The notes under the pieces were generated by a model. That model did not search any database. It was not told the DNA's origin and saw only the letters and a program-made list of their open reading frames with translations. This document shows positions 1,419 through 16,435 of a stretch of DNA of 16,435 nt, piece after piece (within the stretch, counting starts at the first letter, position 1; every line of letters starts with the position of its first letter). Origin of the DNA: a virus. Taxonomy: Duplodnaviria; Heunggongvirae; Uroviricota; Caudoviricetes. The position numbers and the translations under genes are program-made. The stretch is from positions 1-16,435 of IMG/VR virus record IMGVR_UViG_2690315742_000009. One strand, 5' to 3'.

Positions 1419-3860
1419 TTAAAAATCAGCCTGACTCGGGATCAGTTTTTGCCAGATAACTGAAACGTATTTTGCCTGGTAACGAGCGTCATCAAGTGCA
1501 TTATGGCGCTCACCTTCGAATGGAATAGCCGTTCTGGCATCGAAGTCTATGGCTTTCCCCAGCTCAACGATTGTGCGTACATCGCGATCGTTGTAGTAAC
1601 GCCACGGGCAGGGGATCCCCTGCCGTTCGTATGAACGGCGCAAAATCGTGTTGTCGAAGTTGGCTCCATTTCCCCAGACCTGAACAAAAAATTCACCGGA
1701 GTTTTCGTCGATAAATTCCCGCAATTGTAACAGTGCATCATCTAACGGGATTTCATCGGTCATAATGGCAGATTGCGCTTCGCGTGATTGCTTAAGCCAC
1801 CATTTAATGGTGTCCCGATCAATGACTCCGCCAGCAGTTTCCAGATCGATAGTCTTACTAAATTCCGGTCCCATATCTCCGGTTTGCGGATCGAAAAATA
1901 TTGCACCTATTGAGATGATCGGGGCATCAGGATTTTTTCCCATGGTTTCAAGGTCGATCATTAGATGGTCACACGTCCTGCTGGTGGATGTGATTTCGTG
2001 ATGACCGTTCACCTTAATTGAGTGATCTGCCGTCTCGCCAGTTTTATTATCGCTGGCGTGATGCTGATTGCCGCCAGGGTTCTCCTTGTGTGGATGTTCA
2101 GCGCCTTCCATTTCCTCCGGATCATTTTCCTGAACTTCAACCTGATTCTCTTCATCGAATGTTTCCTGGTATGTTGCGTCGCCCATCACCGCGCCACAAT
2201 CAGGGCAGTTGCCGCCACCGCTCTGACCGCAGGCGGTGCAGACTTTTTCCGGTTCCTGTTGCGCTACTGGTTCGGATTGTTTCGTTTCTGGCTCGTTTTG
2301 TAACGCATTTGGGCTGTTTTGTTCCGCTTTTTGGTCGTTCCGTTCCGATTCATGCTGGTTCTGGTTCACAGAATCGCGAGTCTGGATCCCCTTGACCCAT
2401 TTCGGATCATTAGGGTCGCTAATCCCCTCAACAAATTCACCACGCGATACAGCAAGTAACTTATCGGCGTCAGGCTGGCTGATATTGGCTGCCTGCATAA
2501 TTTTGTTTACTTCGTCAGCGGTGACTTTTACTTGGTTAGCGGAACTCACCTGCGACTGAGCATCCAGCGACTGCGCGTTCTGGCCATGTTCAGTTGTATC
2601 CGGTTCCATTGTTTCAGTTGTTGCCTGTTCACCTGCCATTGCGTCAGATGGTTGTGGTTTTTCTTCTTCTGTTTCACGCTCAGTAACCACCTCGCGGTTA
2701 ATTTCTTCCAGGATATCTTTTTCCGGCGTATGCCGGGCAGCTGTGAGAGTTTCCTTGCTGGGGTTCTCGTGATCAGTTTCCGTCAAATAGGCGTTGATAT
2801 ACCCCTGAAGGCGTCCCGGGTAGTGATAAAATTCAGGGTGTGCGCTTCGGATAAGTGCAAAAATAGCGGCGCGGGAATAGTCCAGAATACCCGGGGTTGC
2901 ACGAAGTGCTGCGGACCATTCTTTGAACGGACTTTCTTTGTTCAGGACTACTTCTTTTGCGCGACGATAAACGCTGCCCGGAATTTCATAAATATTAAAA
3001 TCCATCGGAAGTGTGGCTGCTGCAATCTCCACATCCAGTGTGTCGAGGGTGTGTACTAAATTCGGATTGCGATCGGTTTTGTTCCCACCGCCAGCATTAG
3101 CACCGGAAGCCGTGCGGGTGATGCGTGAAACACGATTTCCTTTCATCCACTCTTTTGTCAGCAGACCCCGATCAGTGTAGTCAGCGTCCAGGTATGCTTC
3201 GAAAAAAGCAGTTATTAGTCCCAGGTCTGAATTACCAGGATTAGGGAAAACTTTGTCAGTGTCACGAACCAGTTTGTGGAGGTCGCGAATCTCCAGCGAG
3301 TCGAGCAGACTGGTTTTATGCGAAATAGCCAGGGCAGTAACAGCCGGTAGTTCTTCAGCCCGTGCAATGTGTAATGCCTGGAGTTCGTCGCGTGAAACGT
3401 GCGTTACTGGTTTTTCGCTGCCGTGTTGAGCAAGCCAACGAATGGGCAGTTCCTGACCGGAGACAGGCAGAAGCATGCTCTCCTCAATCTCAGTCATGTC
3501 TTCGCCGTTGATGTTGGTATTGTCAGTGCTGGCTGGTTTGTCCTGAACAGAGGGGGAAGGGCCGATAAATGTCATTGTGATGCCATCTTTCCCGCCTTTT
3601 TCATAGCGGTTGCAGAATTCAGTATCAAACACGCCTTCTGGCGGAAGGTCGTCAACAACGGGCAAATTGACGCGGACGGGTTTTTTAAAGTCGTCTTCAT
3701 CATAATCGTTGTCATCCATTGCGGTAATGCAGCGGGAGATTGCAACAGATAATTTTTTTGCTGTAGTCCAGTAAAAACCACCTTTAATTCCCAGGCGTTT
3801 TCTTACTTTGTCATTTTTTGCTTCGCAATATAGTGCAAATTCTTCTTTATCAGTGCTCAT
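1419..3860 (-). CDS. Exonuclease: RecE-like N-terminal region fused to a DEDDh (DnaQ-like) 3'-5' exonuclease domain
   Basis: 813-aa ORF, ATG at 3858-3860 with GAGG upstream. Residues about 110-600 closely resemble the non-catalytic N-terminal part of Rac RecE as I recall it (e.g. [71 protein letters not shown]). The C-terminal 200 aa carry DEDDh motifs (DLETMG; [12 protein letters not shown]; [13 protein letters not shown]) in place of the RecE nuclease domain. A long acidic low-complexity linker lies between. Confidence 0.8.
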
Positions 3861-4145: not shown

Positions 4146-4330
4146 TGTGCACATCCTTTTGGCATCAGACGTAAACGGGCCAGCATTGAAACAATGCATA
4201 CTTTATTTAATAACTCCCGTTCGTGTTTTCTTTTGTTAATGGCATCTTCAGTAAATACAGGATTACTGATAGTGACACCAATTTCAAAACAACCTTCAGA
4301 CGTATTAACGTTTGGTAATAACGTTTTCAT
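4142..4330 (-). CDS. dicB: Cell division inhibitor DicB (62 aa)
   Basis: ATG at 4328-4330 with GAGGG about 7 nt upstream; the track's GTG at 4435 is an upstream extension. Protein MKTLLPNVNTSEGCFEIGVTISNPVFTEDAINKRKHERELLNKVCIVSMLARLRLMPKGCAQ matches recalled DicB of the Qin dicBF operon. Lies immediately downstream of DicF. Confidence 0.75.
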   Translation of the reverse strand: MKTLLPNVNTSEGCFEIGVTISNPVFTEDAINKRKHERELLNKVCIVSMLARLRLMPKGCAQ

Positions 4331-4503
4331 TATCGCGCCCTCAACAATGAGTTTTGTGATGCGGTGCCTGGTGCCTCCAGGTGACGTTAACCAGTTAACA
4401 ATTAACGCCGGATACAGAGAATCCACCCATAACACTGTTTTTGGTTTTAACTGTTCCGCGTGCGCTTAGCCGCATTCACCGCATCACAAAATTCACTTTA
4501 AAA

Positions 4504-4556
4504 AGGGCGGCAGAGCAGTCACGGAGTAAAACTGATACCGCCAAACGTCACCAGAA
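4504..4556 (-). ncRNA. dicF: DicF small RNA (53 nt)
   Basis: Minus strand reads TTTCTGGTGACGTTTGGCGGTATCAGTTTTACTCCGTGACTGCTCTGCCGCCC followed by TTTT, which matches the 53-nt E. coli DicF sequence as I recall it. Contains a GC-rich terminator stem (GGCGG...CCGCC) and sits between a ydfC-like ORF and dicB as in the Qin operon. Confidence 0.8.
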
Positions 4557-4898
4557 AATTGATAACAGAGGGCGTTGCAGTGGGGTTGTCACTTAAGCGT
4601 ATGGTCAACCTGACAACCCGGTGTCCTCAACGGGGGAAGGAATAACCCCGCCATACTTACCGCCGCGCCATTTCGCGGATTGCCACAACCGGAAGCGCAC
4701 GGTCGACGAAAATTTAACGACAGGCTATCTATGAACCAGCTACCTCGCCGTGCGCTTTCGCGTTATGGTCTGACTTTTCAGGGAAATATCCTTTCAGTAA
4801 ACTGTCAGTGCCGGATGCTCACCCGTGTCCGGCGCACGCACTCCACCTCACCCGTGGAGAACTCCTTAATTACCAACCTTAGCTTCGTTGGTTAGCTA

Positions 4899-5188: not shown

Positions 5189-5545
5189 TTACTCGAGAGG
5201 AAATTGGTTATGAATACAATCAAGTTTTCTTGCCCAGAATGTGGTGGCGAAGTCTTTGACACATCCTTTAAGCCGCAGGGCTCTGACAGTTTCGCGGGAG
5301 CCATCTGCAAAAATTGTGGTCACCTTGTAACTGAAGATGAGTCCTCGCAGTTCGATGACGAAATCGTTGACAATATCTTCGGTGCACTCACCAGAGACTT
5401 TCTGAAATAAAGACGCATACCGCTTAGTTACCGCTCTGATAACTCTTACCTGTCCGGCAATGGCGCTGATGTCAATATAAAGCGCCATTGCTGCTTCTTT
5501 GCCGATCCCGTGATGCCTTCCATTCTGATGTTTGACTTCGCCCAC
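5189..5545 (-). CDS. Hypothetical protein (118 aa from GTG, or 99 aa from ATG at 5488); competing call with the plus-strand ORF 5210..5410
   Basis: Co-directional with the early-left operon. GTG at 5543-5545 preceded by AGAGGA (9 nt). Codon first-position G is about 44 percent in the non-overlapping part 5411-5545. Lies where ydfA/ydfB-type genes would be expected by synteny. It shares exact codon triplets in antisense with the plus-strand zinc-ribbon ORF, so one of the two is probably an artifact. Confidence 0.35.
   Translation of the reverse strand: MGEVKHQNGRHHGIGKEAAMALYIDISAIAGQVRVIRAVTKRYASLFQKVSGECTEDIVNDFVIELRGLIFSYKVTTIFADGSRETVRALRLKGCVKDFATTFWARKLDCIHNQFPLE
5210..5410 (+). CDS. 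Small acidic zinc-ribbon protein (66 aa); competing call with the minus-strand ORF 5189..5545
   Basis: ATG at 5210 with GAGAGG about 10 nt upstream. Two CxxCG knuckles 20 residues apart (CPECGG ... CKNCGH) form a canonical zinc-ribbon signature; acidic C-terminus. Opposite in orientation to the surrounding operon. Confidence 0.4.
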   Translation: MNTIKFSCPECGGEVFDTSFKPQGSDSFAGAICKNCGHLVTEDESSQFDDEIVDNIFGALTRDFLK

Positions 5546-11356: not shown

Positions 11357-11475
11357 TGCAGCGGGTGCTTGAGGCTATCTGTCTCAGGCATGAACACCAA
11401 AAGGCAGATAGAGAAAAGCCCCAGTTAACATTACGCGTCCTGCAAGACGCTTAACATTAATCTGAGGCCATATCT

Positions 11476-11535
11476 ATGCGACACATAGAGATTAGCCTCT
11501 TACGGACCGAAAGGTCAAGGAGAAGCAGGCTATGA
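11476..11535 (+). CDS. Short upstream reading frame coupled to hok (mok-like, 19 codons)
   Basis: ATG at 11476; its TGA overlaps the hok ATG (ATGA). Analogous to mok-dependent translational coupling in hok/sok loci, but much shorter than classical mok. Confidence 0.3.
   Translation: MRHIEISLLRTERSRRSRL
11489..11518 (-). promoter_or_regulatory. Candidate promoter for a Sok-like antisense RNA
   Basis: Minus strand TTGACC (plus 11513-11518), 18-nt spacer, TAATCT (plus 11489-11494). Predicted antisense start near 11482, reading across the start of the upstream coupled frame. Confidence 0.4.
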
Positions 11536-14430: not shown

Positions 14431-14506
14431 GGCCCTTTAGCTCAGTGGTGAGAGCGAGCGACTCATAATCGCCAGGTCGCTGGTTCAAATCCAGCAAGGG
14501 CCACCA
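14431..14506 (+). tRNA. tRNA with CAU anticodon (Ile2-lysidine type or elongator Met)
   Basis: Hand-folded cloverleaf: acceptor GGCCCTT/AAGGGCC, D-stem GCTC/GAGC, anticodon loop CTCATAA, T-loop TTCAAAT, encoded CCA. Close to E. coli ileX as recalled. Confidence 0.8.
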
Positions 14507-14507
14507 G

Positions 14508-14584
14508 CCGCCACTAGCTCATCAGGAAAGAGCGTCAACCCTTTAAGTTGAGTGTGCGAGGTTCGAGTCCCCGGTGGCGGTCCA
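14508..14584 (+). tRNA. tRNA-like gene with unusual anticodon loop CCTTTAA (nominal anticodon UUU, Lys-type; C at position 33)
   Basis: Cloverleaf folds: acceptor CCGCCAC/GTGGCGG, D-stem GCTC/GAGC, perfect anticodon stem TCAAC/GTTGA, T-loop TTCGAGT, encoded CCA. T-stem has one A-C mismatch and position 33 is C, not the near-universal U. Confidence 0.55.
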
Positions 14585-14586
14585 GT

Positions 14587-14662
<76 letters not shown>

Positions 14663-14665
14663 TAT

Positions 14666-14740
<75 letters not shown>

Positions 14741-14746
14741 GTTAGA

Positions 14747-14792
14747 GTCTTTCAGTCTGCGATGATGGGAAATCCCGGAGTGACTGAAAGAC
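14747..14792. repeat. Perfect 11-bp inverted repeat (GTCTTTCAGTC / GACTGAAAGAC) with 24-nt loop
   Basis: Starts 7 nt after the tRNA-Gly 3' end; the loop contains a GGGAAATCCC mini-hairpin; no clear U-tract. Confidence 0.6.
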
Positions 14793-14801
14793 GTTTAAGT
14801 T

Positions 14802-14870
14802 ATGAATGATCGCCTTTTTTTGCAAAATTGCTGTGCAGAAATACTAACCTTCGGGCAGGCGATCATTCAT
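14802..14870. repeat. Perfect 13-bp inverted repeat (ATGAATGATCGCC / GGCGATCATTCAT) with 43-nt structured loop
   Basis: Loop contains a CC-UUCG-GG tetraloop hairpin and a T7 tract; lies between the tRNA array and the lysis genes. Confidence 0.6.
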
Positions 14871-14950
14871 AAGCACTCTGCTTTTATTCCGATTAACTGT
14901 GGGTGTGGTTTGTTGGATAGAGTGCTTTCCTTTCTGTATATATCGTTTCG

Positions 14951-14973
14951 CCCGCTTTTGCGGTTTTTTCTTT
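14951..14973 (+). terminator. Weak terminator-like hairpin with long U-tract upstream of the holin gene
   Basis: CCCGC-TTTT-GCGG followed by TTTTTTCTTTT; preceded by a promoter-like TTGGAT-17/18-(G)TATAT(A) at 14913-14942. Confidence 0.4.
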
Positions 14974-15034
14974 TCAAATCCCTTTCATTTCTCAGTGTAA
15001 AACTACGCCATCCGTTATTTGCGGAGGTGAGGCT

Positions 15035-15250
15035 ATGAAATCCATGGACAAAATTTCAACGGGCATTGCCTACGGCACCTCCGCAGGCAGTGCTGGCTAC
15101 TGGTTTTTACAGTGGCTTGATCAGGTCAGTCCTTCACAGTGGGCTGCGATTGGTGTACTGGGGAGTCTGGTTCTGGGCTTCCTGACTTATCTGACAAATC
15201 TGTACTTCAAAATCAGAGAAGACAAGCGTAAGGCTGCACGGGGAGAGTAA
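15035..15250 (+). CDS. Class II holin, phage 21 S-type pinholin with dual-start motif
   Basis: GGAGGTGAGG SD. N-terminus MKSMDKI gives two in-frame starts (Met1, Met4) as in the S21 antiholin/holin pair; two transmembrane segments; basic C-terminus. Matches S21/EssQ-like sequence as recalled. Confidence 0.85.
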
Positions 15251-15254
15251 TTCA

Positions 15255-15605
15255 ATGACTCAAAACTATGAACTGATTGTGAAAGGAATCCGCAATTTTG
15301 AGAATAAAGTTACGGTAACTTTAGCGTTACGGGACAAAAAAGGCTTTGACGGTGAAATTTTTGACCTGGACATCTCGCTGGACCGTGTTGAAGGTGCCGC
15401 GCTGGAGTTTTATGAGGCAGCAGCCAGAAGGAGCATCAGACAGGTCTTCCTGGATGTTGCTGCCGGGTTATGTGAAGGGGATGAGCAGTCGCCGGAAAAG
15501 CGCCCCGTAATTTTAGATGCGCAGAATGTTTGGATAACCTACAAAGGAAAGCTACCAGGAAGAATTACTGGTTCTCTGAAGACTCCTCCGGAATCACAAC
15601 CTTAA
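15255..15605 (+). CDS. Hypothetical cytoplasmic protein (116 aa) between holin and endolysin
   Basis: GGGGAGAG SD 8 nt upstream of ATG, 4 nt after the holin stop. No transmembrane or signal sequence; no recognisable motif. Confidence 0.6.
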   Translation: MTQNYELIVKGIRNFENKVTVTLALRDKKGFDGEIFDLDISLDRVEGAALEFYEAAARRSIRQVFLDVAAGLCEGDEQSPEKRPVILDAQNVWITYKGKLPGRITGSLKTPPESQP

Positions 15606-15668
15606 GTCACTGACCGGAACAGATAAACCTGTCCGTGGGCAGAAACCGATAAATCCTGATAAATATCC

Positions 15669-16202
15669 ATGAACGCAAAAATCAGATACGGCCTGTCGGC
15701 TGCCGTTCTGGCACTGATTGCCGTCGGTGCGCCCGCGCCTGATATTCTCGACCAGTTTCTGGATGAAAAAGAAGGTAACCACACAACGGCATACCGCGAT
15801 GGGTCCGGCATCTGGACCATCTGTCGGGGTGCCACGATGGTGGATGGAAAACCCGTTTTTCCCGGTATGAAACTGTCGAAGGAAAAATGCGACCAGGTCA
15901 ACGCCATTGAGCGTGATAAGGCGCTGGCATGGGTGGAGCGCAATATTAAAGTACCACTGACCGAGCCACAAAAAGCCGGTATCGCGTCATTTTGTCCCTA
16001 TAACATTGGCCCCGGTAAGTGTTTTCCGTCGACGTTTTATAAGCGGCTGAATGCTGGTGATCGTAAAGGTGCATGCGAGGCGATTCGCTGGTGGATAAAA
16101 GATGGTGGGCGCGATTGCCGCATACGTTCAAATAACTGCTATGGACAGGTTATTCGTCGTGACCAGGAAAGCGCATTAGCCTGTTGGGGGATAGATCAGT
16201 GA
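15669..16202 (+). CDS. SAR-type endolysin (T4-lysozyme-like muramidase with N-terminal signal-anchor-release segment)
   Basis: N-terminal weakly hydrophobic Gly/Ala-rich segment ([17 protein letters not shown]) followed by an E...D...T catalytic arrangement ([20 protein letters not shown]); 177 aa, typical of phage 21 R-type SAR endolysins. Confidence 0.85.
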
Positions 16203-16435
16203 GCAGAGTCGCCGCGATTATTTATGCTCTGGTTATCTGCATCATCGTCTGCCTGTCGTGGGCGGTCAATCATTACCGTGATAACGCCATCGCCTACAAA
16301 GAACAGCGTGATAAAAAAGTCAGTGAGCTGAAGCTGGCGATCGCCACCATCGCTGACATGCAGCAGCGTCAGCGTGATGTTGCTGCGCTCGATGCAAAGT
16401 ACTCGAGAGAATTAGCCAATGCGCAAGCTGAAAAT
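16199..16435 (+). CDS. Rz-like i-spanin (N-terminal part; continues beyond the window)
   Basis: GTG at 16199 overlapping the endolysin stop. N-terminal transmembrane segment ([18 protein letters not shown]) followed by a charged, coiled-coil-like region. No stop within the window. Confidence 0.6.

Follow-up and report, generated by a model that had tools for sequence, protein, structure and literature searches.

The window analyzed here, a stretch of 16,435 nt read on one strand, corresponds as a whole to a Rac/Qin-like lambdoid prophage, as comparison with the near-identical RefSeq CREC-2 prophage illustrates. The prophage gene order is integrase, dicB, racR, hok/sok, DUF968, RusA, Q, four tRNAs, holin, YdfR, lysozyme, Rz, HNH, and terminase. 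Rfam places a sok antitoxin RNA at 11363-11534 (+; 107 bits), which in the related prophage neighbors a hok-type gene; in the dicB region it places a DicF sRNA at 4505-4556 (-; 77 bits). The four tRNA genes (14431-14740; anticodons CAT, TTT, TGT, and TCC) have the Q antiterminator gene on one side and the holin gene on the other, which puts them within the presumed late transcript; the CAT tRNA is a tRNA-Ile in the RefSeq annotation of the near-identical prophage. A 78-codon ORF (14802-15038, +), whose end overlaps the holin start through ATGA, is probably spurious, because it lies between the tRNAs and the holin and is unannotated in the near-identical RefSeq prophage.

The lysis genes that follow form a phage-21-type cassette with an additional gene between holin and endolysin (Table 1). 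The first-pass annotation had singled out this gene as a well-initiated ORF of 116 aa, 4 nt past the holin stop and flanked by a pinholin and a SAR endolysin, and that description is borne out. The holin stop codon, TAA, is followed by the four nucleotides TTCA and then by the ATG of a plus-strand ORF of 116 codons, with a GGAGAG Shine-Dalgarno sequence 7 nt upstream of that ATG. The upstream neighbor matches the pinholin family PF04971, while the downstream neighbor, a PF00959 lysozyme with a SAR-type N-terminus, is a putative SAR endolysin. The Rz-like gene opens with a GTG that overlaps the stop codon of the endolysin gene. The 4-nt spacing and the Shine-Dalgarno sequence embedded in the holin gene lead us to infer that translation of the ORF would be coupled with that of the pinholin, late in lytic growth.

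Table 1. Features of the lysis cassette and of the YdfR-family gene within it (window coordinates)
Feature	Coordinates	Strand	Basis
Phage-21 S-type (class II) pinholin gene, MKSM dual start	15035..15250	+	Pfam PF04971 E 1.4e-35, PHROG holin families
GGAGAG Shine-Dalgarno of the ORF, inside the last holin codons	15242..15247	+	Sequence
YdfR-family (DUF1327) gene, 116 aa plus stop	15255..15605	+	Pfam PF07041, PHROGs, RefSeq name
N-domain, residues 1-74, conserved family core	15255..15476	+	AF2; stand-alone relatives; K-12 YdfR identity
Module B, residues 75-113 (...EKRPVILDAQNVWITYKGKLPGRITGSLKTPP), low-confidence structure	15477..15593	+	Alignments; pLDDT below 50
Segment without counterpart in five longer or 114-aa alleles	15591..15641	+	blastn against L142, L119, L091, L100, L166
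Spacer and endolysin leader, 63 nt, A/T-rich	15606..15668	+	Sequence
Endolysin (phage lysozyme), Ala/Gly-rich SAR-type N-terminus	15669..16202	+	PF00959 E 1.4e-24, PHROG 7 endolysin
Start of Rz-like spanin gene, runs off the window	16199..16435	+	Sequence; 'lysis protein' at this place in the near-identical CREC-2 prophage

It is near certain that the ORF is an intact member of an already catalogued family, YdfR/DUF1327. Its product matches Pfam DUF1327 (PF07041) across residues 1-112 with 141.4 bits, relative to a cut-off of 25 (E 1.1e-41), and the core residues of the family, Y5, Y53, E54, and the YE-x-x-A helix start, are all in place. The gene also conforms to the typical DUF1327 slot, straight after a phage-21-type holin gene, and RefSeq copies with 99.7% identity bear the name 'YdfR family protein'. 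The Pfam score, together with dN/dS values of 0.40-0.48 over 88 distinct alleles, speaks for a real gene rather than a chance ORF, and the same match overturns the earlier impression that the product contains no recognizable motif. The label 'unexplained' is fair as far as function goes; the PHROGs matched by the product (406, 2091, and 1085) are all annotated as being of unknown function. YdfR-family genes are ordinary for E. coli prophages, and the family is already known: the DNA of the gene is matched in 4257 of 5426 complete E. coli genomes (~78%), at up to nine places per genome and with Shiga-toxin phages included. The family is small and of narrow distribution, with 313 clusters when grouped at 90% identity and, in a set of 1.84 billion proteins, 91 representatives at 50%; the source names attached to its members are nearly all Escherichia or Shigella, with a few distant ones such as Pantoea.

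Homology and fold searches indicated no function for the 116-aa product. NCBIfam and PADLOC returned no match (for PADLOC, zero families at E up to 1), a profile search of the PDB gave nothing below E 0.5, the predicted fold of the N-domain had no significant structural neighbor, and one distant related-locus query found no match. A literature search located 'DUF1327' or 'YdfR family' in a single genomics paper.

Within the product, only residues 1-74 are conserved family-wide, and it is this N-domain alone that makes up the stand-alone relatives of 72-76 aa. The AF2 model of the N-domain, built on a deeper alignment (pLDDT 87.7, pTM 0.74), has antiparallel strands at residues 5-14, 18-27, and 34-43 followed by a long helix at residues 50-73; a compact three-stranded sheet with one long helix is thus confidently predicted. 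Y53 and E54 are invariant, and Y5 nearly so, across relatives at 25-45% identity. A dsRBD was considered and rejected, as the alpha-beta-beta-beta-alpha fold of that domain, with its N-terminal helix and basic RNA-contact loops, does not correspond to what is predicted here. Two metagenomic proteins of 170-176 aa (P0190 and P0191) carry two DUF1327-like domains in tandem, an arrangement that hints at an N-domain working as a dimer. The N-domain is acidic (pI 4.9), as is the full product (pI 5.2), whose highest mean Kyte-Doolittle hydropathy over 19 residues is 0.69, compared with 1.72 for the adjacent holin. The hydropathy scan found no transmembrane segment, of which a holin or antiholin would have at least one. 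The sequence is accordingly that of a soluble, cytoplasmic protein, in agreement with the first-pass annotation, which had called it soluble and free of transmembrane segments.

YdfR of the K-12 Qin prophage (P76160; PF07041) belongs to the same family and occupies the same slot, in the order essD holin, ydfR, rrrQ lysozyme, and rzpQ. The two proteins are 80% identical and 95% similar over residues 1-74, but their C-termini are unrelated: K-12 YdfR finishes in a basic tail of 29 aa, whose coding DNA corresponds to non-coding endolysin leader in the window, whereas the window protein continues into module B, which the 63-nt spacer follows. Module B is common to the forms of 114-329 aa. The long DUF1327 proteins among these (176-329 aa; PHROG 1085/2091), found in Stx1/Stx2c-type and other lambdoid prophages, share the N-domain, module B, and the 4-nt junction; past module B they extend into a coiled-coil and further modules, in which a Pfam search found no match, often with a convergent small ORF thereafter. 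Unlike these long forms, the window gene ends 3-4 codons past module B.

The manner of that ending can be traced in some detail. In blastn comparisons with five other alleles, a set including the 268- and 329-aa forms, homology to the window ends at 15590 (codon 112); for four of the five (all but L100) it resumes at ~15642-15646, ~25 nt upstream of the endolysin. Between the two blocks the window has 51 nt of unique sequence, made up of the final codons of the gene (ESQP) with its stop and of the initial stretch of the spacer, while ~670 nt of the 329-aa allele are missing. It is this stop and restart of homology, together with the missing DNA, that marks the 116-aa form as a deletion or replacement derivative of a longer gene, with relatives of up to 329 aa. 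C-terminal ends are highly variable among relatives, from 72 to 329 aa. Natural alleles of 84-85 aa (P0252, P0255-P0257; window frame 15346-15510) shift to the +1 frame after about residue 65, keeping most of the N-domain and losing module B.

At the 5′ side of the gene, matters are far more uniform. The junction of stop, 4 nt, and ATG after the holin recurs in 160 of the 167 loci examined, the window and K-12 included, while the distance from the 3′ end of the gene to the endolysin varies freely among the loci examined (-4, 42, 50, 63, or 230-1317 nt). In phage 933W it is the endolysin ATG that stands at this same 4-nt offset from the holin stop, with a GGAGAG motif; since the 933W endolysin ATG occupies that junction, the DUF1327 gene is, on comparative grounds, inserted exactly at the S/R coupling site of the phage-21-type cassette. 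By tblastn, phage records with an S21-type holin number 438 and those with a DUF1327 N-domain 101 (~23%). The arrangement in 933W and this minority share confirm the earlier view that the ORF interrupts the usual adjacency of holin and endolysin. The endolysin itself is left with a 63-nt leader in which no Shine-Dalgarno-like motif could be discerned by eye, as opposed to the coupled start in 933W and the ATGA overlap between the endolysin start and the ydfR stop in K-12 Qin, so that the insertion probably alters translation of the SAR endolysin. An RNA element in the 63-nt spacer was considered and rejected (fold z-score -0.35, no Rfam match).

Distant relatives occupy other late slots. One, in Pantoea, lies between Q and a class-I holin, ahead of a putative endolysin with a faint GH19 Pfam hit and an Rz-type lysis gene; others lie between the tail genes I and J. 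Taken with the 101 and 438 records and with the S-R adjacency of 933W, these placements identify the gene as an optional and portable accessory gene of the late operon and not a core lysis component. This optionality and the other genomic slots make it less likely that the gene is a committed partner of the pinholin or of the SAR endolysin. A further observation is that, in three different genomic slots, a small helical ORF (74-110 aa) follows the DUF1327 gene in convergent orientation, on the reverse strand: within the DUF1327-endolysin interval in L092, L093, L132, and L164, and at 5240-5545 (-) in L004, 5282-5506 (-) in L007, and 4244-4576 (-) in L003. They are assigned to different PHROGs, all of unknown function, and no similarity among them was detectable, so that the pairs could not be ascribed to a defined two-gene system; the window copy has no such partner.

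What, then, might the product do? The most informative lead comes from work on K-12 YdfR (PMC13232886). Residues 1-72 were isolated in a two-hybrid library screen, with signals for RNase G and, more strongly, for RNase E 1-597; chromosomally encoded Rne1-598-FLAG co-purified with Strep-YdfR, and the Strep-YdfR eluate contained DNase-resistant nucleic acid. The same study recorded almost no RNA-seq reads for ydfR in uninduced cells and, upon overproduction of YdfR, no growth defect and few transcriptome changes. Across the mapped RNase E-binding region the window protein is 80% identical to its K-12 counterpart. The mechanism we consider most likely, with a probability of roughly one in three, is that the N-domain would dock on RNase E through the enzyme's catalytic N-terminal half, more weakly on RNase G, and possibly together with RNA. 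Late in infection, the protein would then be a modulator or adaptor of the RNA decay or processing that depends on RNase E, and would not act on holin, endolysin, or envelope. The proposal has a single source, homology to K-12 YdfR. The scant effect on the transcriptome of uninfected cells would fit a target that is present only during phage late expression. An involvement of RNA is made less plausible by the acidity of the N-domain and by the fact that the window protein does not have the basic tail of K-12 YdfR.

Several other explanations merit consideration. One, which we regard as doubtful, is that the gene is a largely functionless deletion remnant of a longer, multi-module gene that persists at no cost in a recombination-active junction. 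The scar at codon 112 with its loss of ~670 nt, the extreme variability of C-terminal ends, the existence of frameshifted 84-aa alleles, and the encoding of the K-12 YdfR tail by DNA that serves as non-coding leader in the window are all what a remnant might be expected to leave behind. Close-clade variants, moreover, are only mildly biased against amino-acid change, with nonsynonymous to synonymous counts of 23:16 in the N-domain and 17:9 in module B. Over deep divergence, however, dN/dS lies well below 1 across the 88 alleles, with values of 0.40 in the N-domain (dS 0.51) and 0.48 in module B, which indicates purifying but weak selection on the gene. Furthermore, the N-domain frame is intact at every one of the 167 loci examined, each giving a product of 72 aa or more, and stand-alone N-domain genes of 72-76 aa are kept in other genera and other slots, so that the N-domain, at least, appears to be selected. 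Also unlikely is a modulator of lysis timing, which could act in trans, as a cytoplasmic factor on the charged C-terminal tail of the pinholin, or in cis, with the ORF uncoupling endolysin translation and lowering or delaying synthesis of the SAR endolysin. T4 RIII, a small soluble cytoplasmic phage protein that serves as an antiholin cofactor and could influence triggering of holin T, sets a precedent for the former, although no relation to YdfR in sequence or fold was found. The near-invariant holin-stop junction, the presence of an adjoining holin in two of the family's three genomic contexts, and the 63-nt leader here as against 4-nt coupling to S in 933W all suit this explanation, whereas ~77% of phage records with the holin type do without the gene, the product has no membrane segment, and the spacing and coupling of the endolysin vary freely. 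Nor do the positions of relatives fit it well: next to a class-I holin of unrelated type, whose putative endolysin is weakly GH19-like, and in the interval from tail gene I to tail gene J. An envelope leak of the Keio ydfR mutant in a CPRG screen might seem to favor a lysis role, but was discounted (L001; K-12 Qin 3001-3312) as probably a polar effect of the kanamycin cassette, which could drive the endolysin gene rrrQ directly downstream.

Least likely among the rivals, and in our view improbable, is moron cargo that benefits the lysogen through superinfection exclusion, anti-phage defense, or virulence, as the first-pass annotation had envisaged for defense or virulence cargo. The region is a classic moron-rich one in which the gene is an optional insertion, its GC content of 46% is slightly lower than the 50-52% of its flanks, and a convergent small ORF often accompanies its relatives in a manner reminiscent of mobile two-gene cassettes; in addition, plasmid-borne ydfR gave a threefold higher streptomycin MIC in one screen (PMC12924614). 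Yet the idea does not fare well at this locus. A scan of the plus strand from 14750 to 16200 found no promoter- or terminator-like site flanking the gene (a consensus scan only, and hence weak), and a start codon 4 nt past the holin stop means that the product should be made only with the late operon. The empty PADLOC search and the missing convergent partner in the window count against cargo too, as does the behavior of the K-12 homolog, near-silent when uninduced and harmless to growth when overproduced (PMC13232886).

A late-acting adaptor or modulator of RNase E would find company among phage and host proteins. T4 Srd, T7 gp0.7, and phiKZ Dip (gp37) offer a functional analogy only, as small phage proteins that bind or modify RNase E and reshape RNA decay. 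T4 Srd binds the N-terminal half of RNase E; the Dip protein of phiKZ is considered separately below. The host adaptor RapZ, which presents GlmZ to RNase E, binds the catalytic domain and co-purifies with RNA, as reported for K-12 YdfR in the same assays, but RapZ is a large, kinase-like tetramer that has a defined RNA partner and shares no homology with YdfR. A more specific version of the RNase E proposal, and one we hold to be unlikely as it stands, is that the 74-residue N-domain constitutes a previously unrecognized RNase E-docking fold, which temperate phages would carry in the late operon, on its own or joined to variable effector tails, so as to redirect or block RNase E cleavage of phage late transcripts. 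Read in this way, the N-domain would do for temperate phages what is done by T4 Srd or by phiKZ Dip, itself described as an RNase E-targeting phage protein (PMC4980113), residing in most E. coli genomes.

The immediate value of these observations is low, as an annotated gene has been re-identified, and their modest interest lies in function and in the RNase E lead. Should the link to RNase E prove true, it would account for an unusual but conserved feature of phage-21-type lysis cassettes, and would furnish temperate lambdoid phages with a late-acting handle on host RNA decay.
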